Translations under genes and position numbers: made by a program
Notes under the pieces: generated by a model
Database searches by the model: none
The model's input: the letters and a program-made list of their open reading frames with translations, nothing else
What the model was told of the DNA's origin: nothing
Shown: in pieces, positions 55-40,100 of the stretch
How the letters are laid out: each line of letters starts with the position of its first letter
How positions within the stretch are numbered: position 1 is the first letter of the stretch
Assembly (NCBI GenBank): GCA_046758745.1
Contig: JBHIAV010000020.1
Coordinates: 1-45,692 of the forward strand
Direction: 5' to 3'
DNA length: 45,692 nucleotides
From: Gemmatimonadota bacterium
Lineage (GTDB): Bacteria > Gemmatimonadota > Gemmatimonadetes > Palauibacterales > Palauibacteraceae

Positions 55-1164
55 TCACGCGGACTCCGCTGCCAGGAGGAGGGCGATCGCCACGGCGGGC
101 GCCGCCCGGCTTCCATCCTCTCCGAGCTCCCCCGCGAGGTCGACGGTCTCCAGTCCGGCTCGAGCCGCCGCGGCGCGCGCCAGGAAGGCCCCGAGCCCCG
201 CCGTCACCGCTATCCGGGGTTCCGGGCTTCGGAGCCTCGCGCGCAGCTGCCGCACAGCCAGCGCGATGTCGCGCTCCTGCCGCCGCGCCAGGTACGCGGC
301 GATCGAGATCAGCTCCTCCATGGTGAGCTGCGAGAGGTCTGCGCACACCATGCGGGCGAGCCGCGCCGCCGCCTCGGAGCGCGTCTTCCCGCGGCCGTCC
401 GGGGTGGCGCCCGCGTACTCGTCGGGAGCGAGGCGGCCGAGCAGCAGGTGGACATCGCCGGACTGGGCGAACCGCTCCGCCGCCAGGCGGCAGGGTGCGG
501 CGCGCAACGGAACGCAGCGCGCCACTGCGCACAGCGGGGTGCGCACGGCTCCGGTGTACACGAGCTCGCCGGCCCTCAGCCGCTCGAGGTCCGTGCGGCC
601 GAGGGACACGACCCTCCCGCCCACGATCGGCACGATGTCCGTCGTGGTCGTGCCGACATCGATCAGGAAGGCGTCGGGCCAGCGCTTGGCGACGAGACGG
701 GCGGCGGCCGCCCAGTTCGCGGAGGCGACCCGTAGGGGAGCGCTCGCGGCCGCCCCCGGCGAGCAGAAGGTACCGTCGGAGGTGAGGACGCGGAGGCGCG
801 CGCCGGGGCACGCGGCGGCGATCGCGCGCAGGACGAAGGCGACCCCCTCGCCCTTCGTGCGAAAACAGTCCGCGAGCTCGGCGGTGAGCGTCACCCCTAC
901 GAGGTCCGGCGTCCCGAGCTCCTCGTCCGACCCGGGCTGCTCCGTGGCGAGCTCGGTCGCCATCGCGCTCAGGAGATTCGGCAGACCGGCCGGATTCTCC
1001 CACAGCGCATACGGCCGGCTGCGGACCCGGAAATCGGCTGCGTCGGCGATCACCGCTTTGATGTTGGCCCCGCCGACATCCCATCCCAGCACGCGCCGAC
1101 CGGACCGTGCGGGCTCGAGTCCGCAGGGGCGGCTCCGCCGGACCCCTCGCCCCCGCCTCGTCAC
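55..1164 (-). CDS. mfnF: H4MPT-linked C1 pathway hydantoinase-like protein (Orf9 / MfnF-like methanofuran synthase)
   Basis: Motifs LGWDVGGANIKA, VTLTAELADCF, IDVGTTTTDIVPI, ELVYTG, APAVAIALL. GTG at 1164 overlaps the upstream stop (GTGA); alternative GTG at 1092. Confidence 0.85.
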   Translation of the reverse strand: MTRRGRGVRRSRPCGLEPARSGRRVLGWDVGGANIKAVIADAADFRVRSRPYALWENPAGLPNLLSAMATELATEQPGSDEELGTPDLVGVTLTAELADCFRTKGEGVAFVLRAIAAACPGARLRVLTSDGTFCSPGAAASAPLRVASANWAAAARLVAKRWPDAFLIDVGTTTTDIVPIVGGRVVSLGRTDLERLRAGELVYTGAVRTPLCAVARCVPLRAAPCRLAAERFAQSGDVHLLLGRLAPDEYAGATPDGRGKTRSEAAARLARMVCADLSQLTMEELISIAAYLARRQERDIALAVRQLRARLRSPEPRIAVTAGLGAFLARAAAARAGLETVDLAGELGEDGSRAAPAVAIALLLAAESA

Positions 1165-2162
1165 AGCGATGCCACTCGTCCGTTCGCCCGGAAGCAAACG
1201 GCGCGCCGAATCGTCGGGGACCGCCGGACGAGCCGTCCCTCTGCCGCGGCGAGGATGAGGCCGGCCAGGTTGCGGTCCACCGCCGCGCGGAGCCCGATGT
1301 AGGCGGTGGTGAGCCTGGGGTTCAGCTCGATGACCACGGGTCCCCTCGCCGAGAGGACGAGATCGACGCCGACGTAGCCACGCAGTCCCGGCACCAGCTC
1401 GCATGTGCGGCAGGCGGCCCGGAGGGCTCCCCTGCGTTGCGGGTGCTCGAGCGGGCTCCGGCCTCCCAGGTAAGCGAAGGGCCGGCCCGCGACCACGGTC
1501 TGACCGTTGAGGCCGAGGGCTCGGGCCCGCCCCTCCGCGCACAGGACCGATGCGCTGGCCGGAACGCCGGGGACGTATTCCTGCACGATCGGTGGGCTGC
1601 CCACGGCCGCGGCCGCCGCGAGCGCGTCGGCGAGGCCGGACCGATCCCTCACCAGAGTGACACCGCTGCAGCCGGCCCCGGTGTTCGGCTTGACGACCAG
1701 CGGGAAGCCGGCTTCCCGCACGGCAGACTCCGTGTCTCCCCCCGGCCAGGTGCGCGGCAACAGCAGCCCCGCCTCCTCCAGCCGCCGGCAGAGGGCTAGC
1801 TTGTCGCTGGCGGCCCGGATGGCGGTGGGGCCGGGGCCCACCACCATCGCGCCGAGGCGCTCCGCGAGCGCTGCGAGTTCGGCCAGACGGCCGCCGGACT
1901 CGGGGGCTATGAGCCATACGCTGCCCGCCGCGCGCGCCACCTCGGCGAAGATCTCCCTGAAGCCGCCCGGTGGCACCGCGACGGCCTCCACGCCGGCGGG
2001 GAGATCCGCGCGGATGCGTGGGTCCACCGTCGTGAGGAGGTGCCTGTCGGAGAGCTGTACGAGGTCCGCCAGCAGGGCGCGCCGCATGGCGAGCCCCTGA
2101 GCGGCCAGCCCGGCAGGCGGCAGCTCGTCGGCGAAGCCGCCCCCGCTCACGAACTCCAGCAC
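1161..2162 (-). CDS. ATP-grasp ligase, MfnD-like (tyramine/tyrosine--glutamate ligase family)
   Basis: EFVSGGG N-terminus, LIAPESGG, VVKPNTGAGCSG, GYVGVDLV, IELNPRLTT ATP-grasp motifs. Start uncertain (in-frame GTG at 2162). Confidence 0.75.
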   Translation of the reverse strand: MLEFVSGGGFADELPPAGLAAQGLAMRRALLADLVQLSDRHLLTTVDPRIRADLPAGVEAVAVPPGGFREIFAEVARAAGSVWLIAPESGGRLAELAALAERLGAMVVGPGPTAIRAASDKLALCRRLEEAGLLLPRTWPGGDTESAVREAGFPLVVKPNTGAGCSGVTLVRDRSGLADALAAAAAVGSPPIVQEYVPGVPASASVLCAEGRARALGLNGQTVVAGRPFAYLGGRSPLEHPQRRGALRAACRTCELVPGLRGYVGVDLVLSARGPVVIELNPRLTTAYIGLRAAVDRNLAGLILAAAEGRLVRRSPTIRRAVCFRANGRVASL

Positions 2163-2225
2163 GTAGAGGGCGGAGCTGGGGGCCGCGCCTCGCGGTCGCC
2201 GCGCATGCGGAAGGGGGTCGCGCCC

Positions 2226-3008
2226 GTGGAGGTGATAGCCGTCCTCGATGTTCGGGGAGGAGAGGCGGTCCACGCCCGGCGGGGGGAGCGCCAGCTCTAC
2301 CGTCCCGTGTCGAGCGTCCTGACGCCGGGAGCGGACCCGGTCGCGCTGGCGCGCGCCTTCGTCGACCGGCTCGGCCTGTGGGGTTGCTACCTCGCCGACC
2401 TGGGGGCGATCGGCGGGGCGCTCCCGGATCTGGGGCTCATCCGTCGCCTCGCCGCAGCGCTTCCCGGGACCTCGCCTGGTACGTCCGGCGGCGCTGTCCG
2501 GCCTTCGTGCGGCGGCGGACTGTGGGTCGACGCGGGGGTGCGTGACGGAGAGGGCGCTCGCCGTCTGCTCGAGGCGGGCGCCACACGAGCCGTGGTCGGA
2601 TTGGAAACCCTTCCCGGACGGGACGCCCTCTTCTCCATAGCCTCCGCGGCGCCCCCCGATCGTCTCGCGTTCAGCCTCGACCTGCGGGCCGGCCACCCCG
2701 TCGCTACGGCTCCCGCCTTCCAGGCCGCGTCGCCGGCCGCCGTGATGGCGGCCGTTGCGGAGGCCGGATATGGTGCGGTGATTCTGTTGGACCTCGCCCG
2801 CGTGGGCACGGCGACCGGACCTCCCTTCGCGCTCATCGACGAGCTGCGCGGCGGCTTCCCGGACGTGCTGCTGCTGGTCGGCGGGGGCGTGCGGCATGCG
2901 GATGACCTCCGCAGGCTGGCGGATGCCGGATGTGCCGGAGCGCTCGTCGCCACGGCCCTCCACGACGGAACAATCAGCCGGGCGGACGTGGAAGCCGTCG
3001 CCGGCTGA
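2226..3008 (+). CDS. HisA/HisF-like TIM-barrel protein (Orf17, methylofuran biosynthesis)
   Basis: VIAVLDVRGGEAVHARRGER, YLADLGAI, WVDAG, LLDLARVG, VGGGVR, ATALHDG; H4MPT cluster context. GTG 2226 follows AAGGGG; alternative ATG 2205. Confidence 0.8.
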   Translation: MEVIAVLDVRGGEAVHARRGERQLYRPVSSVLTPGADPVALARAFVDRLGLWGCYLADLGAIGGALPDLGLIRRLAAALPGTSPGTSGGAVRPSCGGGLWVDAGVRDGEGARRLLEAGATRAVVGLETLPGRDALFSIASAAPPDRLAFSLDLRAGHPVATAPAFQAASPAAVMAAVAEAGYGAVILLDLARVGTATGPPFALIDELRGGFPDVLLLVGGGVRHADDLRRLADAGCAGALVATALHDGTISRADVEAVAG

Positions 3009-3055: not shown

Positions 3056-3541
3056 TCACTCGAGGGATTCCCGGTAGATGGCCGACTGGCCAAACGACTC
3101 CTCGATCTCGACGGAGATCCCGCTCAGCCGGCCGACTCCCCGCTTTCCGAGCGCGTCGCGCAGCCGTTCGGCGAGATAGCGGGCGATCATCTCGGCCGTC
3201 GTGTTGGGCACGGGCAGGAAAACCACGTCCTGGCGGGGGAAGACGTAGAGGCGGTCCCGGTACCGCACCCTCACCCCTCCATCCTCCTCCGTGATGGTGA
3301 GGGCCGGATTCTCGGTGGGCAGCAGCATCTTGTGGTCGAGCTCCCCCACGATCTCCCTCATCATCCTTTTCAGATCCACGAAGTCGAGGACGAAGTGGTT
3401 CTCGTCGATGTCTCCCTCCACGCTCACCGACGCGCGGTAGTTGTGGCCATGGAGCGACTCGCACTTCCCGTCGTACGTGATGAAGTGTCCGGCCGGGAAG
3501 ACGAGATAGTCCTTGGACACCCGGACTTCGAATCGACTCAT
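3056..3541 (-). CDS. queD: 6-pyruvoyl-tetrahydropterin synthase family (QueD/PTPS, CExxHGH type)
   Basis: GHFITY...CESLHGHNY, VLDF, LDHKMLLP, NTTAEMIA. ATG overlaps the citG-like stop (ATGA). Confidence 0.85.
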   Translation of the reverse strand: MSRFEVRVSKDYLVFPAGHFITYDGKCESLHGHNYRASVSVEGDIDENHFVLDFVDLKRMMREIVGELDHKMLLPTENPALTITEEDGGVRVRYRDRLYVFPRQDVVFLPVPNTTAEMIARYLAERLRDALGKRGVGRLSGISVEIEESFGQSAIYRESLE

Positions 3542-4428
3542 AGAGGTCCGCTCTCCTCCCACAGAACCACGAAGAGGCCGGCCGCGATCAGATCGGCGGT
3601 CGTCCCCGGGTTCCGCGCGTGGCCTTCTCGGCGGAGCTCGCGGTCGAGAGCGGCGACGAGCGCGCGCCCCTCTTCCGTGAGGATCCCGCCCCGTTCCACG
3701 GCAGCGCGAGCAGCCCGGCTCACCTCCTCCGCTTCCGCTCGCCCGAACTTTCGCGCGATGAGCGTGTCCGGGATGTCGGCGAGCACCCTCAGGTACGCCT
3801 GCACGACCGCGTCGGGCCACCCCAGTCCTGTGCACCGCGCCTCCCGGAGGGCCGGAGCGCAGCGCTCGAAGGTGATCTCGAAGTCACTGACGTATTCGGA
3901 CGCGATCGAGTCGCGGTCCGCCGCGAGCGCCATCGCCTCCCGAAGGGAGATCGTCGGAGTGCCGCGGATGTCCTGCTCCGCCACGGTGTCCAGCCCTCCA
4001 GGGGCGGCCGCTCGGATCGCGTGATACGCTTCCACCGCATCGTCCACATTGAGACGCCTCAACAGCTGCCGCAAGCTGTCGCGAAGCGGCTTCCGGCCGC
4101 CGGCCGCCGCCTTCGCCAGCGGCGCGAGCAGCAGGATGATGCCGAGGTTGGTATTCGCGGAGACCCACCTTCGGACCGCGTCGTGCGCCGCCCGAATGGT
4201 GGCGCCGACGCCTCTCTCGCCTGCCTCCGCCATGGCGGGTCCGATCGCTGCGGCGCTCGCCAGGTAGTGCTCGAAGCGGGCGTCCGGGAACCCCGCGGCC
4301 TGCGTCACGTTTCCGGGCTTCGGAGCGGAAGCTTCGAGCAGGCAGGCGATCTGCGCCACCACCCCTACTTCCGGCAGCCTCGCCGGGGGCCGCGCCGCCG
4401 GGGGCCGGGTCGCCGGGGACCGCGTCAT
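3538..4428 (-). CDS. CitG-like triphosphoribosyl-dephospho-CoA synthase family (Orf7)
   Basis: LEASAPKPGNV, NTNLGIILL, PDTLIARK, NPGTTADL; coupled to orf5 and queD. Confidence 0.85.
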   Translation of the reverse strand: MTRSPATRPPAARPPARLPEVGVVAQIACLLEASAPKPGNVTQAAGFPDARFEHYLASAAAIGPAMAEAGERGVGATIRAAHDAVRRWVSANTNLGIILLLAPLAKAAAGGRKPLRDSLRQLLRRLNVDDAVEAYHAIRAAAPGGLDTVAEQDIRGTPTISLREAMALAADRDSIASEYVSDFEITFERCAPALREARCTGLGWPDAVVQAYLRVLADIPDTLIARKFGRAEAEEVSRAARAAVERGGILTEEGRALVAALDRELRREGHARNPGTTADLIAAGLFVVLWEESGPL

Positions 4429-5339
4429 GCACCGAGCGGGAGCGTCCCCTCGGCCGGCCGACGCCCCTCGGTCCCAATCCGGTCGAGCACGCGCTCGGCG
4501 ACCGCTCCCGCGATATCCACCCCCGTCACGGCCTGGAGCCCTTTCCAGCCGGGGATTCCGTTCACCTCGAGCACGTATGCCTCGCCCGATGCTGCCGGGA
4601 GAAGATCAACCCCGGCGTAGTCCGCTCCCACCAGGTCGGCGGCGCGCACGGCCGCTTCCGTCCAAGAGTCGAGGAGATCGACCGGCTCGACGGCCCCGCC
4701 CCGGGCGACGTTGGTTCGCCAATCGGCCGCCCGCCGTGCGGCCGCCGCGACGACGCGCCCTCCGACGACGAAGGCCCTCAGGTCTCGCCCTCCGTGCGGG
4801 ATGGTGCGCTGCACGTAATACACCGCGCCCTCGATCTCGAGAGCCCGGAAGACCCGGTACGCCACGTCCTCGTGCTCGATTCGCACCATGCCGAGCCCGT
4901 TCGATCCGAAGAGCGGCTTCACGATGACGTCGCCGAAGGCGCGGAAGGCGGCCATCGCGTCCTCCAGCGTCTCCGCGACGACCGTGGGCGGCGTGGGGAT
5001 GCCGGCGTCCTCGAGCAGGGTCGACGTATAGAACTTGTCGACCGTCTTCTCGATCGCGCCGGCTGTGTTCACCACCGGCACCCCGAGCCGCGACAGGCGA
5101 TGGAGCGCGTCCACCCGAAAGATCGTCCGATCCAGCGAGGCGCGGGGGATGATGCGCACCAGCACGGCCATCAGGTCATCCAGTGCGGTTCCCCCGGCGC
5201 TGAGGCGCGGCGCGCTCCCCACACGGCCCACCAGAGCGTCGATCGGAAGCAGCTTCGACTCCACCCCCCGCTCGCGCAGAGCTCGGGCGAGCTCATCGGT
5301 GTGCCACCCGCCCGACGCGGCCAGGATACCGACCTTCAT
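4425..5339 (-). CDS. RimK-family glutamate ligase (Orf5/MyfB, methylofuran polyglutamylation)
   Basis: VDKFYTS, IVKPLFGSNG, DLRAFVVG, WRTNVARG, GVDLL, EVNGIPGW. ATG 5339 after GAGGAG; alternative GTG 5408 overlapping the mch stop. Confidence 0.85.
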   Translation of the reverse strand: MKVGILAASGGWHTDELARALRERGVESKLLPIDALVGRVGSAPRLSAGGTALDDLMAVLVRIIPRASLDRTIFRVDALHRLSRLGVPVVNTAGAIEKTVDKFYTSTLLEDAGIPTPPTVVAETLEDAMAAFRAFGDVIVKPLFGSNGLGMVRIEHEDVAYRVFRALEIEGAVYYVQRTIPHGGRDLRAFVVGGRVVAAAARRAADWRTNVARGGAVEPVDLLDSWTEAAVRAADLVGADYAGVDLLPAASGEAYVLEVNGIPGWKGLQAVTGVDIAGAVAERVLDRIGTEGRRPAEGTLPLGA

Positions 5340-5404
5340 TTGCCCTCGCTCCTCACCCGTCTCGCTCCTCCTCCGCCGGGGCGGACTGGGCCATCCGTGC
5401 TCGC

Positions 5405-6358
5405 TCACGTCAGGAGAGAGGCACGCAGCACGGCCGGGTTCACCTCTCCGGCGCGGAAGGTACGCCCGCTCGCCACGTTGGTCAGCGCCACCTCGGCGGG
5501 GCTGAACAGGTGCGGATCGATGCGGTAGAAGTCGCCATCGTAGCGCTTGAAGATCTCGTAGAAGGGAGTCCCGTAGTCGGAGGAGGCGGAGGACGGGATG
5601 CGGGAGACGATCTCCGCCAAGGCCTCGTCGCTCGTGCGGACCGTGAAGTGGGCGCGTCCCCCGTACAGGACGCAGTCGTTCGTTCGTCCGATCGCTCGCA
5701 GGTCATCCTTCGCGACGGGCGCGAGGGGCGCGGTGCCCAGTCCGCTGAGCACCGCTCCGATGTCGAACTCCAGCTCCAGCATCTTGTGCAGGGCCGTCTC
5801 GAGCACCCGTGCCGAGATCTGTACCCCGCCGGCCAGGCTCGCCGTGGGCGCGACGAGGAGGAAGAGCCCGTCGGGCGAAACGCCGGCACGCTCCGATACG
5901 TACGCCGCCACCTTTGCGTCCGGGAGCTGGCGCGTCTCCAGCACCAGCACCCCCCTCTTCGCCCTCTCCTCGTACCCCAGGGTCCCGAACAGCTGCTTCT
6001 CCACCCTGGCTGCGGCGCGGAGCGGGCCGGATCCCATGGCGAAGTAGCCCTCCGGATCGATCTTCCAGCCGGCGTACTGCGACGCCATGCAGCTCACCGC
6101 CGGATGGTCCGTGGAGACGATGACGCCCGGGAGCCAGTAGTCTCCGAAGTCGACGGTGGTGAACGCGATCTCGCCCAGGCCGCCCATGCACGCCTCGGCC
6201 AGCCTCCTGCCCGCGGCGAGGCCGCCCGGCGCTCGGACCCCGGCGTCGATGACCCGGGTGCCTCCCCCCAGCGACTCGACCTGAAGGCCAAGCGCCGTGG
6301 CATCCGCAATCATGCCATCCGCGATGCGGGCCGCCCGCTCGTTCAGCCCGAGGTCCAT
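5405..6358 (-). CDS. mch: methenyl-tetrahydromethanopterin cyclohydrolase
   Basis: ACMGGLG, CMASQYAGW, FAMGSGP, QISARVLETALHK, GRTNDCVLYGG, FYRIDPHLFSPA. Confidence 0.95.
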   Translation of the reverse strand: MDLGLNERAARIADGMIADATALGLQVESLGGGTRVIDAGVRAPGGLAAGRRLAEACMGGLGEIAFTTVDFGDYWLPGVIVSTDHPAVSCMASQYAGWKIDPEGYFAMGSGPLRAAARVEKQLFGTLGYEERAKRGVLVLETRQLPDAKVAAYVSERAGVSPDGLFLLVAPTASLAGGVQISARVLETALHKMLELEFDIGAVLSGLGTAPLAPVAKDDLRAIGRTNDCVLYGGRAHFTVRTSDEALAEIVSRIPSSASSDYGTPFYEIFKRYDGDFYRIDPHLFSPAEVALTNVASGRTFRAGEVNPAVLRASLLT

Positions 6359-7242
6359 TCCAGGATCTCCCGCAGATGGAGCAGGTGCTGCCCGAGCTTC
6401 CCACCGTAGTTCCCGGCGGTGATCGCCCTGACCCCCGGACGGCAGGCGGCCGGGATCCCCGCCCGCATCGCCGCCCTCACCTGCTCGAGGCCCATGCCGT
6501 CGATCACGATCTCGAGCACCGAGTTCACCCCTTCCGGGAGCGCGCTCTCCACGAGCGCCCGCAAGGTCGGGCAGTACGCGTCGTTGGTCGTGGCCTTGAG
6601 GGAGTAATGGCGCGATCCCACCTTGCTCCCGCTCCTGACGATCCCCCCTGGGAAGGGGAGGATGACTTCGGGCAGTCTCTCCATCGCCTCCACCGCGGCC
6701 TCGCCCGCCTCGAGGCCCGCGTCGGCGTCCTCGGCGAGGATCAAGAAGTTGCCCCCGCCCACCGCCTCGCGCACGCCGAAGGTCTCCTCGACCAGGAACT
6801 CCCCCTCCATCACGGGGATCCGCCAGTACCGGCGGCCGTCGATGACCTTGCTGATCTGGAACCGATCCCCGAAGTACCGGAGCTGGCCACCCACGTCGAT
6901 GCGTTCCTCCTCTCCGGGAAGCCCGTCATAGCAGGCGGTCGTCGGGCACGTGAGGACGCACTGGCCGACGCGCTCCACGGCGCGCTTCTCGACGCCTTCG
7001 CGGTCGAACGCGAAGAGAAGGACGCTGACGCCCGGACGGCCGTCGGGGGACTCGGCCGCAGAGAGCTGCCGTTCGATCCCCGCCTCGCACTTGCAGCCGA
7101 TCACCGACGTGGCGAAGCCGGTGAGCTTGAGCGCCGCCTCCCGCGCCCAGCGCGCGTTGCGGGCCGTGATCACGAGGCGGGCCGCGCGCATGGTGAATGC
7201 CTCCGCGAAGGTATCCTCGATCAGGACGCCGCGGATCCGCAT
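6343..7242 (-). CDS. fhcD: formylmethanofuran--H4MPT N-formyltransferase (Ftr/FhcD)
   Basis: IEDTFAEAF, GFATSVIGCKCEAGIE, RVGQCVLTCPTT, FPGGIVRSGSKVGS, TAGNYGGKLG. Confidence 0.95.
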   Translation of the reverse strand: MRIRGVLIEDTFAEAFTMRAARLVITARNARWAREAALKLTGFATSVIGCKCEAGIERQLSAAESPDGRPGVSVLLFAFDREGVEKRAVERVGQCVLTCPTTACYDGLPGEEERIDVGGQLRYFGDRFQISKVIDGRRYWRIPVMEGEFLVEETFGVREAVGGGNFLILAEDADAGLEAGEAAVEAMERLPEVILPFPGGIVRSGSKVGSRHYSLKATTNDAYCPTLRALVESALPEGVNSVLEIVIDGMGLEQVRAAMRAGIPAACRPGVRAITAGNYGGKLGQHLLHLREILEWTSG

Positions 7243-7392: not shown

Positions 7393-7442
7393 TCGGGGTA
7401 AGCTCAGCCGCGCGCCGCCGGGGTGAGCTCAACCTCGCGCCG
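7393..7442. repeat. 25-bp imperfect tandem duplication of the fwdC 3' end
   Basis: TCGGGGTAAGCTCAGCCGCGCGCCG (7393-7417) versus CCGGGGTGAGCTCAACCTCGCGCCG (7418-7442), 21/25 identical. Confidence 0.8.
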
Positions 7443-8259: not shown

Positions 8260-8284
8260 GAACGCCTCTGCGCTCTGGGGCGCC

Positions 8285-22742: not shown

Positions 22743-22745
22743 CCC

Positions 22746-30460: not shown

Positions 30461-30959
30461 CACACCGTTCCTTTCACCAGAGGTCCGGCGACACCGCGCC
30501 GCCGAGGGGAGTCGTGGTGCCCCAGCCAGGGGGACACTCGTATCGTGCGTGGCCGCAACGATAACACCACGGGGCAAGGGCGGCGATTCGAACTCGCGGG
30601 CCCTGCGGACCCCGGGCCGGGAGGGAGGGTAGGCGGGGTGGAGGCCCCGGGGAACCTGCGAGAGGATTGGCGCATTACCGGGAAGGTGCCGGCGGATGAG
30701 CCGGCCCCGGAGTGGTGGGCAGCCACGGGAGCCCGCCCGGCTCGCTGCAGCTCCAGCCCCGGGAGGCCGTTTCTGGCCTTCGGCGTGGCGCGAGAAGCGG
30801 GGCTGGGGGCGAGGGTTTGGCCCGGAAGTTGCTCGAGATGCTTGACATGAGGGAGCCTCGTGCGCGTTGCCGGGGCGATCCCGACGGGTGAACCGGCGGT
30901 ATCGGTCGGAGGGGCGCCGGGTTGTGTGCTCCCGCAGTGGCATAGATGGGAGTAGATGT

Positions 30960-33171: not shown

Positions 33172-33196
33172 CCTCCGATCCAAGCTGAACGCACCG

Positions 33197-33234
33197 AAAA
33201 AACCGGGGGCAGCGTGGGACGCTGCCCCCGGTTT
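33197..33234 (-). terminator. intrinsic terminator after the second PQQ dehydrogenase
   Basis: 16-bp perfect stem AAACCGGGGGCAGCGT-GGG-ACGCTGCCCCCGGTTT; ends in T6 on the minus strand. Confidence 0.8.
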
Positions 33235-33270
33235 CCCCTACCGGGCCGGGCCCGGCGCCGCCCAAGGCCG

Positions 33271-35025
33271 CTAGCGCGCGAGGGCGAAGGTGAACACCGC
33301 GTCGCCGCGCCGGTAGCCGAGCTGGAAGTTTCCGCCGCACGCCACGGTGACGTACTGACGTCCGTCCAGCTCATACGTCATCGGAGCGGCGTTCGCTCCC
33401 GCGCCGCAGTTGAACTTCCACAGGATGTCGCCCGTCTCGGCGTCGAACGCCTCGAAGTCACCGTTCCCCTCACCCGTGAACACCAGCCCGCCCGCGGTGG
33501 CCAACAGGCCGCCCATCATCGGGTCCTCGGTCTCGTGGCTCCACGCCACGTCGCCGGTGTTGACATCCACCGCGACCACGTACCCCCCCTGGTCCTCGCC
33601 GGGGACGGCGACGAACGCGCTCCCCAGCCACAGCTTGCCCTTCTCATACGGTGAGAAGTGCGTGATGTAGTTCATCGGCTGGTGGAGGGCCGCGATGAAC
33701 TGGTAGCCAAGCTGCGGGTTGAAGGCCGTGGGCGACCACTCCGCCCCGCCGTTCGCTCCGGGGAGCATTCGCACGCCTTCCGCCGTCGGCTGGGCGAACA
33801 GGTTCTCGTGCGGCACCCAGTTCTGCGACCGGCGGATCCGCTCGCCCGTCTCCGCATCGAGCACATACGTCCACCCAGTCTTGCCGGCGTGGATCACCGC
33901 CTTCGTCCCGTCCGAGAGGCGCACCAGAGCCGCCGGGCTCGCCGCGTCGAGGTCCCACACGTCGTGCGGCAGGTACTGGTGGCACCACTTCATCGTCCCG
34001 TCGGCGATGTTGATGGCGCAGATCGACTCGGTCCACCGGTTGTCACCCGGCCGGATCGAGCCGTCCAGGTCGGGGGAGGGATTTCCGATCGACACGAAGA
34101 CGGTCCCCGTCTCGTCATCGATCGCGGGGGTCTGCCAGATGGAGCCGCCGCCCACCTTCCAGCTGTCGGCGTGCTTAGCCGAATCGGCCTTCTCTTGGGC
34201 GATGTCGCGGTTCAGGTTCTCCCCGCCCGGCGTCGTCTCGGCCCACTCGCCCCACCAGCCCCCTTCCTCCGGGGAGGGGATCGTGTGCCAGGTCCAGACC
34301 AGCGCCCCCGTCTCGGCGTCGAAGGCCTTGAGGAAGCCGCGGATCCCGTACTCGGCCCCCGCAGTGCCGATCAGGACCTTCCCCTCGTACACCGTCGGCG
34401 CCATCGTCTCGGAGTAGCCGGCCGCCGGGTCCGCGATCTGCGTCTCCCACACCTTCTCGCCGGTCCTCTGGTCGAGGGCGACGAGGCGGGCGTCCAGCGT
34501 GCCCAGGTACAGCTTGCCGTACGCGGCCGCCACGCCGCGGTTGTTGGGTCCGCAGCAGAAGATGGTCGTCTCCCCCAGCTCGTTCTCCCCCTCGTAGCGC
34601 CACAGCTCTTCCCCCGTACGGGCGTCCACGGCCATGACGTTGTCCCACGGCGTGGTGAGGTACATGACGCCGCCGAACACGAGCGGCGTGTTCTCGAAGG
34701 ACCCGAGGCGGCCCGCGCCCGTCTGGTACACCCACACCGGCACGAGCCCCGACACGTTCTGGCGATTGATCTGGTCGAGCGGCGACCAGCGCCGGTTCGT
34801 GTAGTCCTTGCCGTACATGCGCCACTCCGAGGCCTCATCCACGGCGCCCTTGAGGTCGGAGTCGCTCAGGCTGGCGAACGTGGGTGGGGCCGCCTCCTCG
34901 GCCGGCGGGGCTTCCTCCGCCGGCCTTCCCGTGTCCGCCGGTTGACAGGCGAGGCCCAGCAGCCCCGCGGCAAGCGCGGCCAGCCACCGGGTGGAACCGA
35001 CGAACTCCTGGCGTAAGCTCTCCAT
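33271..35025 (-). CDS. second PQQ-dependent alcohol dehydrogenase, lipoprotein, probably lanthanide-binding
   Basis: Lipobox LLGLAC; IFCCGPNNRG, GAEYGIRG, IGNPSPD, HDVWDLDAASP (D-x-D), PGANGGAEWSP. ATG after GAGGAGG. Confidence 0.9.
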   Translation of the reverse strand: MESLRQEFVGSTRWLAALAAGLLGLACQPADTGRPAEEAPPAEEAAPPTFASLSDSDLKGAVDEASEWRMYGKDYTNRRWSPLDQINRQNVSGLVPVWVYQTGAGRLGSFENTPLVFGGVMYLTTPWDNVMAVDARTGEELWRYEGENELGETTIFCCGPNNRGVAAAYGKLYLGTLDARLVALDQRTGEKVWETQIADPAAGYSETMAPTVYEGKVLIGTAGAEYGIRGFLKAFDAETGALVWTWHTIPSPEEGGWWGEWAETTPGGENLNRDIAQEKADSAKHADSWKVGGGSIWQTPAIDDETGTVFVSIGNPSPDLDGSIRPGDNRWTESICAINIADGTMKWCHQYLPHDVWDLDAASPAALVRLSDGTKAVIHAGKTGWTYVLDAETGERIRRSQNWVPHENLFAQPTAEGVRMLPGANGGAEWSPTAFNPQLGYQFIAALHQPMNYITHFSPYEKGKLWLGSAFVAVPGEDQGGYVVAVDVNTGDVAWSHETEDPMMGGLLATAGGLVFTGEGNGDFEAFDAETGDILWKFNCGAGANAAPMTYELDGRQYVTVACGGNFQLGYRRGDAVFTFALAR

Positions 35026-35635
35026 AAGTGCCTCCTCGGAAACGTTACCGGCGCTCGCGAACGCCCGTTCGGGCCGCCCCAACGGCCCGCGACGATGGGC
35101 GATTCGCGGAGGTCCCGGCGCGGCTGGGCAGCGGCGAGCGGCACACGGCGGGAGCCGGCGCCGATCGCACGAAAGACGCGTATGGACGATCGTCGCCTCG
35201 CAGGCGCCCGGCGTCGGACGCGTGAGCGTGGGGAAAGGACGAAGCTCGCTGTGTGGCGAGAAACAAATGCGCCGGCCTCCCAACTCGTGTTCGGGTGAAA
35301 GCGCTGGCGCGCGTGCCCCCAGGAGTCTGCCCGTAGCAACACAGGGTAACGACTTCCGCCCAGGATCGTCAACTAGCCCGGCTCTTCCGAGGCTTGACGG
35401 GCCGGCCCCTCGCCGGGAGATTTCAGCACTTCGCGCTCGGTGCCAAGGGCCCGTCTGCCGCGGCTCCGGTGATCCACGCATCGGCGGAAGCCACGCGCGA
35501 CGGGCGGGGGCCGGGCCCATCCGGCTTCTGAGGGCGCCGCCTCCAGTCACGTCCGGCGCCTTGTCCATCCGAGTGCGGAGGGCGCCGCCGGCCGTACCCG
35601 CCGCCGGCGCCGACCGAACGAAAGGAGGGGGCTCA

Positions 35636-37783
35636 ATGTCGCCAGAGGCAGTTCGAAAGATCCATTATGGCCGGCAGGCGCGTCGACTCCTCGCGTGGAT
35701 CATGCCGCATCTGGTGCTCGGCGCAGCGCCCGCGGCTCTCTCCGCTCAGGAGACCGAGCCGGCCGAGGCAGACACCACCCCGGCGGCCCGGCACCGCCTG
35801 GAGCAGATCCGGGTCACCGTCACCCGTGGAGAACGGGTCCTCACGCGCCTCCCCTACGCCGTGTCGGTGAGCACCGTCGAGGACCTTCAGAGAGGCGAGC
35901 GGAGCGTCTCGCTGGAGGAGGGTCTGAGGGCGGTGCCGGGGGTGTTCGTCCAGAACCGGAGGAACTTCTCCCTCGGCGATCGGGTGACGATCCGTGGTGT
36001 GGGCTCCCGCGCACAGTTCGGCGTTCGTGGGATCCAGATCCTGGCGGACGGCATCCCGCTGACCCTTCCCGATGGTCAGGCCGTCCTCACCAACCTCGAC
36101 TTGAGCTCGGCCGGCCGCGTGGAGGTGATCCGTGGCCCCGCCTCCGCCCTGCACGGCAACGCCGCCGGAGGCGTGCTCAGCTACTACACCGAGGATTTCG
36201 CCCCCGGCCGCCTCCAGGTGGGTCCGGACGTGACAGGGGGAAGCCACGAGTTCCTGAGCACTCGGATCCGGACCTCGGGGATCCTAGGGAGCTTCGGATA
36301 TCTCGCGAACTTCCGGCGCCTCGAGACCGACGGCTTCCGCGAGCGTGCCCACGCCGAGATGTACTCGGCCAACGTGGTGGGCCGCCAGAAGTTCTCCCCC
36401 TCCACCGAGCTCCGGGGCGTGCTCAACGTCTTCCACATGCCCTTCGGGGAGAACCCGAGCTCGCTGACGCGCGACGACGCGATGAACAACCCGGAGATGG
36501 TGCGCTCGTTCATCATCTCGCAGGGTGCGGGGGAGGAGAACACGCAGGGCCAGCTCGGGCTCGCGCTCACTCATCGGTTCGATTCGGACCATGAGATCCA
36601 GATCGCGGGGTGGGGGCTCGGCCGGAGCATCTGGAACCCGATTCCTGGCCGGATCATCGATCTCTCGCGGGACGCCGGGGGACTACGCCCGATCGTGAGC
36701 GGAACCGAGCGGTTCGGCGGCCAGCGCTCGCTCCGCTGGATCGTCGGGGCGGACGCCGCTCTGCAGAGCGACGACCGGCGCGAGCACCGGAACGAGGGGG
36801 TCGGGGAGTCCGGCGGGCGGGCGGTCGAAGGAGAGCTGCTGCAGGACCAGCGGGAGCGGGTGCTCAGCCTCGGCCCGTTCGCCGAGCTCACCCTCGGGCT
36901 GACCGACGAGTGGCGGGTCACGGTGGCCGGCCGCTACGACGTCTTCGACTTCGATGTGGACGACAAGAAGCTCGATGACGGGGACGACTCCGGCCAACGC
37001 ACTCTCACGCATTTCAGTCCGATGGTGGGGATCACCTACGCGCCCGTCGAGGAGTTCGCGGCCTACGCCAACTTCGCGACCGCCTTCGAGACCCCGACAA
37101 CGAGCGAGCTGTCGAACCGGCCCACCGGTGAGGGCGGTTTCAATCCAGACCTGGACCCGGAGACCATCGAGAGTTTCGAGGTGGGGGTGCGCGGTTGGGT
37201 CGAGGCTGCGAAGCTCCGCTACGGTGTCTCGGGATACCTGGCCACGGCCGACGACGCGCTCCTCCCGTTTCAGGGCCCGACGGAGGAGGTCTTCTTCCGC
37301 AACGCCGGGGAAGTCTCCCGCGATGGGCTCGAGCTCGAGCTCGCCTGGCTCCCGCACGCCAGCGTGGAGACGCGTGTCTCCTACACGTTCCAGGACTTCG
37401 TGCTGGAGGAGTTCGAGACGGATGAGGCGGACTTCTCAGGCAACCGGGAGCCCGGCGTTCCGCGGCACCGGGTCTTCGCGGGAGCGACCTACCGGGCCCC
37501 CTTCGGGCTGCGCTCGGAGGTCAACTTTCAGTGGGTGGATGCGTTCCTGGTGGACGACGCGAACGAGTTCTCCAACTGGTCGTCTCGCGTGGTCGACCTG
37601 CGATTCGACCTCGACCTGCGGGTCGGTCACGCCGCCGTGCAGCCGTACCTCGGGATCGACAACGTGTTCGACGAGCGGTACAACGCGTCCGTGATCCCGA
37701 ACGCGTTCCGCGACCGGTATTACGAGCCGGCGCCGGGCAGGGAGGTGTACGGAGGCCTCAGGGTCCCGGTGGGCATCCGGTAG
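35636..37783 (+). CDS. TonB-dependent receptor, YncD/PqqU-like
   Basis: IRGVGSRAQFGVRGI, DGIPLTLPDGQ, EVIRGPASALHGNAAGGV, FETPTTSELS, YYEPAPGR. ATG after AAGGAGG. Confidence 0.88.
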   Translation: MSPEAVRKIHYGRQARRLLAWIMPHLVLGAAPAALSAQETEPAEADTTPAARHRLEQIRVTVTRGERVLTRLPYAVSVSTVEDLQRGERSVSLEEGLRAVPGVFVQNRRNFSLGDRVTIRGVGSRAQFGVRGIQILADGIPLTLPDGQAVLTNLDLSSAGRVEVIRGPASALHGNAAGGVLSYYTEDFAPGRLQVGPDVTGGSHEFLSTRIRTSGILGSFGYLANFRRLETDGFRERAHAEMYSANVVGRQKFSPSTELRGVLNVFHMPFGENPSSLTRDDAMNNPEMVRSFIISQGAGEENTQGQLGLALTHRFDSDHEIQIAGWGLGRSIWNPIPGRIIDLSRDAGGLRPIVSGTERFGGQRSLRWIVGADAALQSDDRREHRNEGVGESGGRAVEGELLQDQRERVLSLGPFAELTLGLTDEWRVTVAGRYDVFDFDVDDKKLDDGDDSGQRTLTHFSPMVGITYAPVEEFAAYANFATAFETPTTSELSNRPTGEGGFNPDLDPETIESFEVGVRGWVEAAKLRYGVSGYLATADDALLPFQGPTEEVFFRNAGEVSRDGLELELAWLPHASVETRVSYTFQDFVLEEFETDEADFSGNREPGVPRHRVFAGATYRAPFGLRSEVNFQWVDAFLVDDANEFSNWSSRVVDLRFDLDLRVGHAAVQPYLGIDNVFDERYNASVIPNAFRDRYYEPAPGREVYGGLRVPVGIR

Positions 37784-37901: not shown

Positions 37902-40100
37902 TCACCGGTCGGCGTCTTGGCCGAAGTTGCGCCGCACGATGACCTTGAGCGCCCGGGCGTTGAGCGGCGAGAGGAAGCGCTCGAGCTCGCCGGTCAGCCC
38001 GTTCTCGTTGAAGGTCCCGAAGATGGGGCGGCGGGAGTCGAACACGTTGCTCACGATGCCCTCGATCTCCCACTGAGCGAAGGCCCAGCCGGCACGGACG
38101 TTCGCCACGAAATACGTGTCCAGAGGCTCGGTCTCGTTGGCCTCGTCGCCTCGCAGCCACTGCGCTCCCACCAGCCGCGCGTCGAGGCCGATGTCGAAGC
38201 CCCCCGGCAGCTCCGTCAGTCCTCCCAACTTCAGCTGGTGGTCCGGCACGAGCGGCATGCGGTCGCCGCTGTGCACGTCGTTGGGGCCTGACAGCGGGCT
38301 GTCCTCGAAGTCATCGTCCGCCCGCACGCTGAACAGCTCGGCCGCAGATCGAAAGGTGGCCCGCGTGTAGGCGTAGCCGACGTAGGCCGATAGGGGCGCA
38401 CCGAGGTCGACGCGCGCCGACAGCTCCACTCCTTCCCTACGAGTGCGCTCTACATTGCGGAAGAAGCCCTCCACCGGGGAGGCCTCCGACGGAACGAAGA
38501 AGATCTCGTCGCGCACCTCCGTGCGATACGCCGAGGCGTCGATGGCCACGGGACCGAGCGCCCAGCGCCCCCCGAGCTCGAAGGTGACCGCGGTGACGGG
38601 ATCCAGCGGAGGGTCTTCGCCCAGGGCGAAGGGCAGCGGGCAGGCGGCCTCGGGGTCGGCGCAGGCGAGCTCCAGGATGGCCGGCGCGCGGAAGCTGGCC
38701 CCCACCGAGGCGTACAGCGAGACATCCGGTTCCACGGCGATGCTCACCCCGCCACGCGGGCTCAGTCGACCGTACGTGCTCGTGGTGTCGCCCGCCGGAT
38801 CGAGGAGGTTGCGGAAGGGGATGCGCACATAGTCGTACCGGGCGCCCGCCGAGAGCGTCGTGCGCCCGACCCGTAGGTCGGCGATCGCGAAGCCCGCCAG
38901 GTCGAGGCTCGGGCTCTCGACATCGGTGGTGATCTCCCCCTCACCTTGGCCGCGCTGCTCCTCGAAGATGCGGATATCCACCCAGTTCGCAGCGGCGTCA
39001 GCGCCGAGGCGAACCGACAGGGTGCTACCGCGGAGCGGCGACGTCCAGCGCCAGTCGGCCGTGCCGCCGACGGAACGGTTGGTGGCGAAAGCCCGGACGT
39101 CGTCCTCGGGCGGCTGGTTGACGTTGAACCGCTCGCCCTCGGAGCGCCGGAAGTAGGCCCGGAGCGAGGCGCGCCCCGTCCCGATAGGCGCGTAGCCGGC
39201 GAGGGAGAACTGCTGGAGGTTGAGGTCTTCGAAGTCCCCGGCCGTGAAGTTCGTCTTCGGAGCCGACTCGAACAGGCTCTCCGGCAGGGAGCCCGCCGTC
39301 TCCGCCCGCGACTCGGCCGCGAATAGCTGTAGGGTGGCGCCGCGGGCGGCGCCGAGCCGGCCCAGGTTCAGGAAGCCGTTCCAGCTTTGCGCCCCGGTGG
39401 CGTCGCGCCATCCGTCCTCCCGTTCGTACCCGCCGCCGAGGTAGTAGTCCCACCCCCCCGACGAACGGCCGCCGAGGGAGCCCTCTGCCGAGAACGCTCC
39501 GAACGATCCGCCCGAGAGCTCGATCTCTCCGGATGGCTCCCCCCTCCCGCGGCGCGTCACAAGGTTGACCGCGCCGCCGAGCGAGTTGGGTCCGAGAAGG
39601 GAACCGGTGCCGCTCAGCAGCTCCACCCGCTCGACATGCTCCATCGGCAGCAGATCGAAGTTCACCTCCTGCGCGTCGGGCTCGTTTTGCCGAACGCCGT
39701 CCAGGAACACCGAGACGCCGGGGGGCAGGCCGAGCGTGGGCCCGACGACGAAGCCGCGGGTGCTCAGGTTCAGCTTGTAGGGCGAGCCGAGATCATCGTA
39801 GAAGGACACCCCTGCCAGCGAGGCCAGGGCGTCCGCCAGGAGGCGCGGCTCCCAGGCGTCGATCTCCCGGCCGGCGAGCACCGAGACGCGGGCCGGGACT
39901 CCGGAGGCGATTCCCGGGCCGGCCGCGGGCACGATCGAGCCGATCACCTCGATCGGCTGCAGCTGAAACGTGGCCGTATCGCGTTTCGCGGCGGTGTCGG
40001 CATCCTGGGCGACCGCCGATCGGGCCAGACCGCCCGCGATCAGGGCGATGAGGACGAAAGCCTTGGCGAATCTCCCTTCCCGGCCACCTGTCATCGTCAT
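37902..40100 (-). CDS. TonB-dependent receptor, LutH/LanA-like
   Basis: RGFVVGPTLGLPPGVSVFLDGVRQNE, VNFDLLP, GPNSLGGAV, RAPAILELACADPEAACPLP..DPPLDPV, RGDEAN. Confidence 0.88.
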   Translation of the reverse strand: MTMTGGREGRFAKAFVLIALIAGGLARSAVAQDADTAAKRDTATFQLQPIEVIGSIVPAAGPGIASGVPARVSVLAGREIDAWEPRLLADALASLAGVSFYDDLGSPYKLNLSTRGFVVGPTLGLPPGVSVFLDGVRQNEPDAQEVNFDLLPMEHVERVELLSGTGSLLGPNSLGGAVNLVTRRGRGEPSGEIELSGGSFGAFSAEGSLGGRSSGGWDYYLGGGYEREDGWRDATGAQSWNGFLNLGRLGAARGATLQLFAAESRAETAGSLPESLFESAPKTNFTAGDFEDLNLQQFSLAGYAPIGTGRASLRAYFRRSEGERFNVNQPPEDDVRAFATNRSVGGTADWRWTSPLRGSTLSVRLGADAAANWVDIRIFEEQRGQGEGEITTDVESPSLDLAGFAIADLRVGRTTLSAGARYDYVRIPFRNLLDPAGDTTSTYGRLSPRGGVSIAVEPDVSLYASVGASFRAPAILELACADPEAACPLPFALGEDPPLDPVTAVTFELGGRWALGPVAIDASAYRTEVRDEIFFVPSEASPVEGFFRNVERTRREGVELSARVDLGAPLSAYVGYAYTRATFRSAAELFSVRADDDFEDSPLSGPNDVHSGDRMPLVPDHQLKLGGLTELPGGFDIGLDARLVGAQWLRGDEANETEPLDTYFVANVRAGWAFAQWEIEGIVSNVFDSRRPIFGTFNENGLTGELERFLSPLNARALKVIVRRNFGQDADR

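Follow-up and report, generated by a model that had tools for sequence, protein, structure and literature searches.

The 45,692-nucleotide stretch analyzed here (hereafter the window) is the entire contig C20 (JBHIAV010000020.1) of a 3.08-Mb, 130-contig genome of a Gemmatimonadota bacterium (GCA_046758745.1, designated G000), which is estimated to be 87.4% complete and 0.08% contaminated. The same stretch is contained in four DNA runs from one hydrothermal-vent metagenome study. Between positions 55 and 40,100 it carries genes for lanthanide-type methanol oxidation, genes for tetrahydromethanopterin (H4MPT)- and methanofuran-linked C1 oxidation and, lying exactly between fae and xoxF, a Calvin-cycle cassette of the order hk-rr-tal-rbcL-prk-tkt', in which hk and rr denote a histidine kinase and a response regulator and tkt' a transketolase remnant. 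Since the G+C content of about 69% fills mechanical lists of open reading frames (ORFs) with shadow frames, the frames were picked by their third-position G+C (GC3), and were then searched against Pfam and NCBIfam using curated cutoffs; ORF scans of the window refer to these two collections and structure comparisons to PDB sequences. The window was compared with four related genomes, namely the groundwater metagenome-assembled genome (MAG) G401, G402, G403 and G027 (C plus number denotes a contig, L plus number a fetched locus), with rbcL neighborhoods from 51 species-genome and 54 metagenome loci (105 besides the window, many of them short), and with 401 Gemmatimonadota genomes, a sample that includes G000 and 30 genomes of the same family.

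A sequence-only reading of this DNA had described xoxFJG, fae-mtd-mch-ftr, fwdDBAC with an NADPH:ferredoxin oxidoreductase (FNR) and tal-rbcL-prk-tkt as contiguous modules, accompanied by cofactor-uptake receptors. Pfam and NCBIfam searches recovered all the genes that it named on this one contig, where it had placed them (Table 1), and corrected several details. The run tal-rbcL-prk-tkt is indeed contiguous, with only the N-terminal domain of tkt left. The genes fae, mtd, mch and ftr are all present, not as one block, the fwd operon, the FNR gene and an ATP-grasp gene lying between fae-mtd and mch-ftr. Both xoxF and xoxJ scored above their cutoffs, and the c-type cytochrome beside xoxJ is a probable xoxG, weakly MoxG-like (67.5 bits vs a cutoff of 147.8). 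Two TonB-dependent receptors exist, below every cutoff of a specific NCBIfam model, and the label 'cofactor-uptake' for them is therefore putative. A second pyrroloquinoline quinone (PQQ) dehydrogenase was missing from that inventory, and serine-cycle or ribulose monophosphate (RuMP) pathway genes, which it had reported as lacking in the window, were found in none of the ORFs scanned there.

The RuBisCO large subunit and its clade

Comparison of RbcL, the large subunit of ribulose bisphosphate carboxylase/oxygenase (RuBisCO), with PDB sequences gave the best matches to 7qsz and its kin (771-775 bits), the 7qs* entries being presumably reconstructed ancestors. The next ones were 8u66, 7qsw and 6ura (679-698 bits), the last of which we take to be Ca. 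Promineofilum breve Form I' RuBisCO, and ordinary Form I enzymes followed at 503-630 bits. With one genome taken per species, the closest RbcLs came from two MAGs named Gemmatimonadota (80% and 77% identity); behind these came Chloroflexota (61-74%), along with a small number of Planctomycetota and a single Bacillota MAG. A maximum-likelihood tree of 48 rows, which include no reference Form I'' or I-alpha sequences, placed the window RbcL in a 38-row clade (100/100) with Chloroflexota Form I', separate from the 10 rows of canonical Form I. At its base this clade parted, in an order that the tree left open, into the window sequence, the pair L002 and L042 (97/86) and a mostly Chloroflexota core of 35 rows (100/99), the window and these two other Gemmatimonadota RbcLs all falling outside the core. 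The window protein also shares the indels of the Chloroflexota clade in that it lacks 12 residues ahead of the last helices, the C-terminal extension and the N-domain insertion; canonical RbcLs of the same phylum have all three, with a C-terminus about 15 residues longer. A missing C-terminal extension is given as a character that separates Form I' from Forms I and I'' (10.64898/2026.09.21.753380). The catalytic motifs of the window RbcL are intact, including GGGTHGHP. The carboxylase active site comprises, in spinach numbering, Lys175, Lys177, Lys201, Asp203, Glu204, His294, Arg295, His327, Lys334, Ser379, Gly381, Gly403 and Gly404.

Searches for a small subunit were negative: in the 87.4%-complete genome PF00101 had no match at E<=1, and a RbcS probe from the same phylum reached a best E of 0.23. 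The prk gene begins about 10-40 nt past the rbcL stop codon, and neither candidate start leaves space for rbcS (the true start may be near 20670, the tblastn alignment extending back to 20673). As controls, rbcS was found directly after rbcL in three of three canonical genomes of the phylum and, counted by locus, immediately 3' of rbcL in seven of seven canonical loci and in none of four Gemmatimonadota Form I'-type loci; prk follows rbcL in 42 of the 46 Form I'-type loci from species genomes. Judged by tree, indels and PDB ranking, the window RuBisCO is of Form I' type, within a small-subunit-less clade, in agreement with the sequence-only reading, which had called it small-subunit-free, and it is predicted to assemble as L8.

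Other assignments were considered and rejected. Form IF has a cognate small subunit and lies within Form I (10.64898/2026.03.18.712719). Form I'' carries a C-terminal extension that is not present in the window RbcL, and for Form I-alpha an identity of about 48-50% with Forms I and III is described (10.1101/2021.08.23.457424), vs 64-74% with Form I' and 53-59% with Form I for the window protein; both of these forms were set apart by published descriptions, not by reference sequences. A RuBisCO-like protein (Form IV) does not fit the intact active-site motifs and the score of 657.6 bits with NF003252.

As of 2021, no Form I' had been found outside Anaerolinea, and anaerobes are stated to be the main hosts of small-subunit-less forms (10.1101/2021.08.23.457424). 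Anaerolineales and Caldilineales have been noted to carry Form I', and Gemmatimonadota the Calvin cycle (PMC9802188). Another study lists Chloroflexi and five Planctomycetota as Form I' hosts, plus two deep subclades of unnamed hosts, and considers broader sampling necessary to settle Form I' monophyly; its available text contains no occurrence of 'Gemmatimonad', 'methanol' or 'methylotroph' (10.64898/2026.09.21.753380). We found no report of Gemmatimonadota as a Form I' host phylum in the literature searched. Nor did this literature yield the combination seen in the window, which the sequence-only reading had likewise not recognized as described; published Form I' sets (e.g., subclade-1/-2) may hold unlabeled Gemmatimonadota entries.

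Methanol and C1 oxidation genes

Among PDB sequences XoxF scored best with 4mae (769 bits), presumably the SolV enzyme of Methylacidiphilum, then with 6oc5 (727 bits) and 6dam (694 bits), and MxaF-type entries reached 586-643 bits. Its WDYDG motif, beginning with residue 323 of the trimmed protein, is matched in the alignment by an identical WDYDG in 4mae. Lanthanide enzymes are marked by an additional Asp two positions past the catalytic one (DYD), and MxaF has Ala there. The second PQQ dehydrogenase has its nearest PDB matches in 6zcv and 6zcw, both quinoprotein ethanol dehydrogenase entries, and has Asp at the lanthanide position (WDLD). It is grouped, within 29918-35025, with a sulfocyanin-like cupredoxin, a DoxX protein, whose gene lies downstream of the beta-propeller gene and before the cupredoxin, and unannotated ORFs. 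The blue-copper protein may be the electron acceptor of this dehydrogenase instead of a cytochrome.

Compared with archaeal Fwd, the bacterial Fhc complex has lost Cys118, His119 and Arg288 of FwdB, the N-terminal [4Fe-4S] domain and the fourth domain, FwdD (Hemmann et al. 2019, PMC6926001). The window FwdB has the motifs CTFCGC (residue 30), NAC (56), SVCHGPS (134) and RGHGNVTG (309); CTFCGCVCDD...NAC aligns with CPFCGTLCDD...NAC of the archaeal 5t5i_B, SVCHGPS with an identical SVCHGPS and RGHGNVTG with RGHYNVTG. Its scores were 392 bits with 8rja_B and 371 bits with 5t5i_B, both archaeal, vs 63 bits with 6s6y_B, which we take to be Methylorubrum extorquens Fhc. The related genome G403 has the same Cys-type FwdB (78%) and a FwdD (63%) in the same place. 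G401 (L089, C14 7683-9638) and G027 (L090, C65 14467-15582) show SAAHEAS and SAGHEPS, respectively, in the Fhc-style gene order B-A-ftr-C, and a search for FwdD gave no match in either. The B subunit of G401 retains the N-terminal Cys motif and looks like an intermediate state. By these motifs, the FwdB of the window, with the FwdD-like protein as its candidate partner, is that of an archaeal-type Cys-bearing dehydrogenase, not of the bacterial Fhc hydrolase, and the complex is predicted to oxidize formyl-methanofuran to CO2. The FNR gene that adjoins fwdD is full-length and matched FprA (1lqt, 399.9 bits, residues 21-468) and adrenodoxin reductase (1cjc, 382 bits); this FprA-type reductase may pass Fwd electrons to NADP+. 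A ferredoxin or FwdF/G-like polyferredoxin gene was not recognized among the window ORFs scanned. The gene set for methanol to CO2 (XoxF, Fae, Mtd, Mch, Ftr and FwdABCD) is complete in the window.

Table 1. Features of the window, with positions, strands and the matches on which each assignment is based.
Feature	Position	Strand	Evidence
H4MPT-linked C1 transfer pathway protein, MfnF-like, hydantoinase_A fold, methanofuran/methylofuran biosynthesis	55-1101	-	TIGR03123 318.6 bits (cutoff 244.1); MfnF 197.8 (below cutoff); Pfam Hydantoinase_A
ATP-grasp ligase, weakly MfnD-like (cofactor glutamylation)	1161-2963	-	Pfam ATP-grasp_3, preATP-grasp_3; MfnD 71 bits (below cutoff)
CitG-like triphosphoribosyl transferase family, H4MPT cofactor island gene	3538-4428	-	Pfam CitG 238.6 bits; syntenic in G401, G403
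RimK/MptN-like H4MPT:glutamate ligase	4425-5408	-	Pfam RimK; NF040720 MptN 253 bits (below cutoff 350)
mch, methenyl-H4MPT cyclohydrolase	5405-6358	-	Pfam MCH 409 bits
ftr, formylmethanofuran:H4MPT formyltransferase	6343-7242	-	Pfam FTR, FTR_C
fwdC	7429-8367	-	TIGR03122 266.6 bits (cutoff 130.65)
fwdA, amidohydrolase subunit	8285-9982	-	TIGR03121 680.5 bits (cutoff 392.75)
fwdB, Cys-type pterin subunit, N-terminal [4Fe-4S] Cys motif	10008-11408	-	TIGR03129 502.9 bits
fwdD-like 'fourth domain' subunit, 134 aa, overlaps fwdB start	11362-11766	-	Pfam Molydop_binding 46.7 bits (cutoff 26.8); NF042908 FwdD 71.9 (below cutoff 175)
FprA/adrenodoxin-reductase-type FNR	11833-13257	-	PDB 1lqt, 1cjc
ATP-grasp_3 protein	13597-14817	+	Pfam; no NCBIfam match; weak homologues at same island position in G401, G403, G027
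mtd, methylene-H4MPT dehydrogenase (MtdA/B family)	15143-15997	-	Pfam Mpt_N 106.6 bits
fae, formaldehyde-activating enzyme	16052-16573	-	Pfam Fae 240 bits
hk, histidine kinase (HisKA_3), RuBisCO cassette	16836-17594	+	Pfam
rr, NarL/LuxR-type response regulator, RuBisCO cassette	17591-18220	+	Pfam Response_reg, GerE
tal, transaldolase	18344-19144	+	Pfam TAL_FSA 195.7 bits
rbcL, Form I'-type RuBisCO large subunit by sequence, 462 aa	19273-20661	+	NF003252 657.6 bits; PDB ranking, tree, indels
prk, phosphoribulokinase	~20703-21656	+	NF005655 337 bits (cutoff 236)
tkt', transketolase remnant, N-terminal thiamine pyrophosphate domain only; frame open to 23146 without homology	21653-22735	+	Pfam Transketolase_N only
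Rearrangement scar: 36-nt imperfect direct repeat and orphan 110-aa ORF	22736-23982	.	Unique in genome
xoxF, lanthanide-type PQQ methanol dehydrogenase, signal peptide	23983-25773 (ORF open from 23818)	+	TIGR03075 702.8 bits (cutoff 480); start from N-terminus alignment
xoxJ	25919-26851	+	TIGR03871 313.7 bits (cutoff 212.15)
c-type cytochrome, probable xoxG	26848-27480	+	Pfam Cytochrome_CBB3; MoxG model (below cutoff, see text)
Periplasmic binding protein, PQQ-ADH system type	27506-28801	+	Pfam Peripla_BP_6; TIGR03863 152.7 bits (below cutoff)
PQQ-catabolism-associated beta-propeller protein	28849-29883	+	TIGR03866 326 bits (cutoff 287.3)
Sulfocyanin-like cupredoxin	32479-33183	-	Pfam SoxE 43 bits
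Second PQQ alcohol dehydrogenase, probable lipoprotein, WDLD	33271-35025	-	TIGR03075 483 bits (cutoff 480); PDB 6zcv 305 bits
TonB-dependent receptor	34991-37783 as listed; true start probably near 35650	+	Pfam Plug, TonB_dep_Rec_b-barrel
TonB-dependent receptor	37902-40100	-	Pfam; every specific NCBIfam model below cutoff

Beyond 40.2 kb the window holds unrelated genes (DUF4097 proteins, an ECF sigma/anti-sigma pair, a DinB protein and a DUF6588 protein). Two DUF4097 'toastrack' genes at 40360-43467 lie downstream of the ECF sigma factor and its zf-HC2 anti-sigma factor, and a paralogous DUF4097/ECF sigma set is present on contig C15 (sigma factor 48%).

Position and mobility of the RuBisCO cassette

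In G401:C14, G027:C65 and G403:C106 the genes mtd-fae on the minus strand are directly followed by the divergent xoxF-xoxJ on the plus strand, and the cassette stands between them in the window only. Since fae and xoxF adjoin in these three relatives, we conclude that the cassette entered the intergenic region between these two divergent genes and lost its 3' end in the event. An attempt to place the insertion boundaries by homology of intergenic DNA failed, only coding DNA being aligned between the window and G401, G403 or G027, and a promoter and terminator scan of 16000-24200 gave nothing beyond the level in shuffled sequence.

The order hk-rr-(tal)-rbcL-prk-tkt recurs in Chloroflexota loci, and the cassette therefore travels as a unit; across the Form I'-type loci (n = 46, many of them short) a kinase was found near rbcL in 24, a regulator in 26 and tkt in 16. 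Such hk and rr genes accompany Form I' rbcL in loci L004, L008-L011, L013, L015, L018-L022, L026-L029, L031-L036, L045 and others, and the pair occupies the place expected for a LysR-type CbbR. The HisKA_3 kinase and the NarL/LuxR regulator may be the cassette's own regulator, a point that we did not find discussed in the literature consulted.

The transketolase remnant matches full-length relatives (674-750 aa) only at residues ~26-361. Homology ends at 22714-22765, where the Pyr domain would start, and neither a Pyr nor a C-terminal transketolase domain was found in any frame after tkt' in the window. An intact 665-aa tkt lies on contig C7, so that the function of the truncated copy is covered. 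About 20 nt past the end of homology there is a 36-nt imperfect direct repeat (22757-22792 and 22802-22837, 83% identity, 45-nt spacing), and an orphan 110-aa ORF (22962-23294, plus strand) shows coding-like codon bias, with no Pfam match and no homologue in the fetched loci. A repeat or mobile-element origin of this scar was not supported, as 22700-23990 is unique in the genome.

Elsewhere the cassette occupies other sites. In G401 it lies in a region with flanks syntenic to G000 contig C29, and in G402 it lies beside a region resembling G000 contig C12. Segment G000:C29:9341-16981 is colinear with L042, and G000:C12:15227-22272 with L002/L093, at 40-70% protein identity and with no cassette in G000; these C29 and C12 regions look like empty sites that could date cassette moves. 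In G403:C106 (L087 and L088, 7009-36505), prk (57%), a full tkt and hk-rr are found inside the H4MPT/XoxF island, between the ATP-grasp and CitG-like genes. There is no rbcL there, the RuBisCO of this genome being an ordinary rbcLS on another contig (L037), and the arrangement looks like a cassette whose rbcL was lost or swapped. From these gene neighborhoods we conclude that the cassette is mobile and that its place between fae and xoxF is peculiar to this population. Of the four Gemmatimonadota genomes examined, however, two (G000 and G403) carry cassette genes inside the C1 island, at two positions, which argues for some functional pull. Since the two placements could also be one old event followed by rearrangement, they were not treated as independent.

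The possible role of the cassette and its relation to known systems

Most of the Calvin cycle could be assembled from this genome. The genes pgk, gap, fbp and rpe and an intact tkt, which the sequence-only reading had proposed to look for, were all found outside the window: rpe on C8, pgk and gap adjacent on C4, and a class I fructose-1,6-bisphosphatase (FBPase) on C1. Together with RbcL, PRK and Tal this gives Tkt, Rpe, Pgk, Gap and FBPase I, and the aldolase is a sub-cutoff candidate, a DeoC-family protein next to rpe on C8 whose best model was class I fructose-bisphosphate aldolase (220.6 bits, cutoff 277). A PF00274 class I aldolase search gave no match, and control genomes were equally silent. 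PqqC was found on C47 and one heme-copper oxidase subunit I motif on C5. As for competing assimilation routes, complete RuMP or serine assimilation, named beforehand as an outcome that would speak against the Calvin cycle, was not indicated by the two families searched for in this 87.4%-complete genome: hps gave only an 18-bit match, on the rpe gene, and the HpcH_HpaI family, which includes malyl-CoA lyase, gave 0 matches, but formate-tetrahydrofolate (THF) ligase is present (C5, 830 bits).

These findings led us to the following account, which we hold to be on balance the probable one: the organism would be an autotrophic methylotroph with an inserted Form I' cassette, in which methanol is oxidized to CO2 and the CO2 enters the Calvin cycle. 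A mobile Form I' Calvin-cycle cassette (hk, rr, tal, rbcL, prk, tkt) would have entered the fae|xoxF gap of a pre-existing lanthanide-methanol/H4MPT island, in an event that removed the last two thirds of the cassette tkt. In the periplasm, XoxF with XoxJ and a c-type cytochrome would turn methanol into formaldehyde; Fae, Mtd, Mch and Ftr would carry the C1 unit to formyl-methanofuran, and a Cys-ligated archaeal-type tungsten or molybdenum FwdDBAC would release CO2 from it. The textbook bacterial Fhc hydrolase releases formate. The FprA-type reductase may hand the Fwd electrons to NADP+, and an L8-type RuBisCO without small subunits would fix CO2 together with PRK, with the other enzymes of the cycle supplied by C7 (Tkt), C8 (Rpe and a probable class I aldolase), C4 (Pgk, Gap) and C1 (FBPase). 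Such an organism would resemble the 'autotrophic methylotroph' of the Methylacidiphilum/Methylomirabilis type, but with a Form I' enzyme. As part of the same account, and with the same somewhat better than even confidence, we take the window to be one genuine chromosomal island of a vent-metagenome Gemmatimonadota population.

Several observations weigh against this account. That RuBisCO would fix the methanol-derived CO2 is read from the adjacency of the genes, which is its one ground; the claim of the sequence-only reading that methanol is oxidized to CO2 and refixed thus agrees with the gene set, and its second half is weakened by CoxL, the formate genes and the cassette's own regulator. 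As the genome is 87.4% complete, every genome-wide negative is provisional. GlpX and a class II aldolase were not found in the genome, and the aldolase candidate stayed below its cutoff. A formate dehydrogenase alpha subunit (C61, 741 bits) is present along with formate-THF ligase, so that formate handling and a folate-linked entry into the serine pathway remain open to the organism. XoxF/H4MPT methylotrophy with PQQ synthesis in Gemmatimonadetes has been described with serine-pathway assimilation (Butterfield et al. 2016, PMC5103831), as it has by Voutsinos et al. 2024 (PMC10875860), and the words RuBisCO, Calvin and CBB are absent from the available text of both papers. The same synteny, for which a search of other genomes had been suggested, did not recur: xox or H4MPT genes stood beside rbcL in none of the 51 species-genome loci, and the 54 metagenome loci gave only a 22% beta-propeller match, which was taken as spurious. 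In the phylum sample RbcL matches at E<=1e-50 occurred in 9 of 401 genomes, the other eight being 53-63% identical and canonical, Fae matches in 84 and XoxF matches at E<=1e-120 in 135 (both of the latter tallies include the unpublished genome G057, and that of XoxF also G157; no other result draws on these two). Four genomes (G034, G062, G122 and G272) combine canonical RuBisCO with Fae and XoxF, and the pairing of RuBisCO with XoxF/H4MPT is therefore not unique in the phylum; what is special to the window is the RuBisCO form and its position. G401 (RbcL 80%, XoxF 86%, Fae/Mch/Ftr 78-83%) also pairs Form I' RbcL with XoxF/H4MPT, the genes lying on different contigs, so that one further genome at least has this pairing.

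A serious, if rather unlikely, rival holds that the cassette serves general chemolitho- or mixotrophy, e.g., on CO, that its site in the island is accidental and that methanol carbon is only dissimilated or otherwise assimilated. The genome encodes a form I CO dehydrogenase large subunit that scored above its cutoff (CoxL, C35:10969-13239, 1266.9 bits, cutoff 991), so CO could be the reductant of the Calvin cycle; C39 and C25 hold two more CoxL-like genes. Since a kinase and a regulator of its own, conserved in Chloroflexota, come with the cassette, its control is possibly unrelated to methanol. Its location differs in each relative, rbcL stands beside C1 genes in none of the 105 other loci, and the event truncated the cassette tkt, so that the insertion could be an accident tolerated only through the second tkt. 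However, two of four genomes have cassette genes within the C1 island, which accounts for only some 1% of the genome; a search of the genome for NiFe hydrogenase was negative, and with neither RuMP nor malyl-CoA lyase found, no other complete route of C1 assimilation is evident.

It is improbable that the cassette is a decaying, non-functional acquisition of which the truncated tkt is the first visible loss: tkt' does lack its Pyr and C-terminal domains and is followed by a scar with repeats and an orphan ORF, but the other five cassette genes (hk, rr, tal, rbcL and prk) have their full length and score strongly with their families, RbcL retains its catalytic motifs, the GC3 signature is that of normal coding DNA, the sequence is identical in two samples, and the intact tkt elsewhere makes the loss neutral.

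An artefact, either a chimeric assembly or a mis-binned contig of another Gemmatimonadota, seems to us equally improbable. A single Logan contig of run X1 spans 14001-24789 with 0 differences and one of run X2 spans 19225-27060, at flat depths of ~12.4 and 10.3-11, respectively; both junctions, fae|kinase and tkt'|xoxF, the mapping of which the sequence-only reading had called for, were rebuilt in this way by another assembler in two samples. X1 and X2 are flagged as possible sources of the assembly itself, which makes this a second assembler and not a second sample, and among the pieces listed for two lower-depth runs none bridges a junction. X1, X2 and X3 also contain a low-depth contig that matches the window to 16761 and then diverges, and another that starts matching at 17540. 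These breakpoints bracket the histidine kinase gene, and the minor contigs may represent a strain variant that differs in allele or arrangement at the cassette's left edge. The loose end at 16761 was rejected as the window's own xoxF upstream region, its 30-base consensus having no window match at <=3 mismatches.

As for binning, C20 ranks 19th of 72 contigs of >=10 kb by closeness of its tetranucleotide profile to the genome mean, nearer than the median contig, all five C20 sub-blocks fall inside the spread of 225 6-kb genome blocks, and the G+C is 0.687 vs 0.684 for the genome. The DUF6588 gene at the non-island end had its sole match (53%) in a same-family genome, one of five genomes queried. 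RbcL, Fae and XoxF each occur in none of the 30 sampled same-family genomes, and the island is therefore foreign to the family, which counts against our account; mis-binning is opposed only by composition and that single flanking gene. Mis-binning would leave the contig's own content unchanged. The nearest RbcL, XoxF, Fae, Mch and Ftr all come from MAGs named Gemmatimonadota, and the flanks of these relatives' loci are syntenic with other contigs of G000, which bears out the earlier guess of a probable Gemmatimonadota host.

The Form I' enzyme is regarded as discriminating poorly against O2. A further proposal, possible but rather doubtful, is that an O2-respiring Gemmatimonadota runs the Calvin cycle on this deep-branching Form I' because Fwd and FprA would supply CO2 and NADPH alongside and raise internal CO2, and that insertion at the fae|xoxF promoter hub would tie expression to methanol and lanthanides. 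If this further proposal is true, Form I' is not confined to anaerobic Chloroflexota, nor are bacterial methylotrophs to the route via Fhc and formate dehydrogenase. Form I' informs reasoning on the origin of the small subunit and of O2 tolerance, and a Gemmatimonadota lineage at the base of the clade adds to the broader sample for the question of Form I' monophyly. The setting, with O2-linked methanol oxidation, poses the question whether an L8 enzyme can support growth on internally generated CO2. The locus further suggests that a redox-active Fwd, in place of the Fhc hydrolase, was retained or reacquired by some bacteria, and that some lineages of Gemmatimonadota, a phylum abundant among soil XoxF carriers, may assimilate C1 units as CO2 and not via the serine pathway. 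Overall, the observation stands, and its interpretation is a reasonable but provisional reading of the genome.

Compared with the Form I' loci of Anaerolineales and other Chloroflexota, the window shares the lack of rbcS, prk directly after rbcL, the same indels, 64-74% identity and the hk-rr-(tal)-rbcL-prk-tkt cassette; it differs in its Gemmatimonadota host, in branching outside the 35-row core and in having the cassette in a methylotrophy island, and its organism looks O2-respiring (XoxF with cytochrome c; heme-copper oxidase motif on C5). With archaeal Fwd/Fmd (5t5i, 8rja) it has in common the Cys-His and Arg of FwdB, the N-terminal Cys cluster, a candidate FwdD and an ftr outside the fwdDBAC block, whereas the window showed no FwdF/G polyferredoxin, fwdD has an FprA-type reductase beside it and the host is a bacterium with XoxF. 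The soil Gemmatimonadetes methylotrophs, as far as the available descriptions go, likewise have XoxF and XoxJ, a cytochrome, a beta-propeller protein and a TonB receptor, with H4MPT pathway and cofactor genes adjoining the dehydrogenase and PQQ synthesis in the genome; in contrast, the genome of the window gave no malyl-CoA lyase match, and its RuBisCO cassette splits fae|xoxF.

Paracoccus and Xanthobacter are Calvin-cycle methylotrophs and, like Methylacidiphilum and Ca. Methylomirabilis, use an L8S8 Form I RuBisCO. Calvin-cycle 'autotrophic' methylotrophy or methanotrophy is described for Methylacidiphilum and Ca. Methylomirabilis (PMC9874027). With this type the window shares, at the level of genes, C1 oxidation to CO2 followed by RuBisCO and PRK, a XoxF-type dehydrogenase and, provisionally, the finding of neither a RuMP pathway nor a complete serine cycle; it differs in having no small subunit and in a last oxidation step that looks like a redox Fwd, not Fhc plus formate dehydrogenase. 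What would be new, then, is that known modules (XoxF/H4MPT, the Form I' cassette and Calvin-cycle methylotrophy) are joined in a new host, in a gene order that suggests how this came about.

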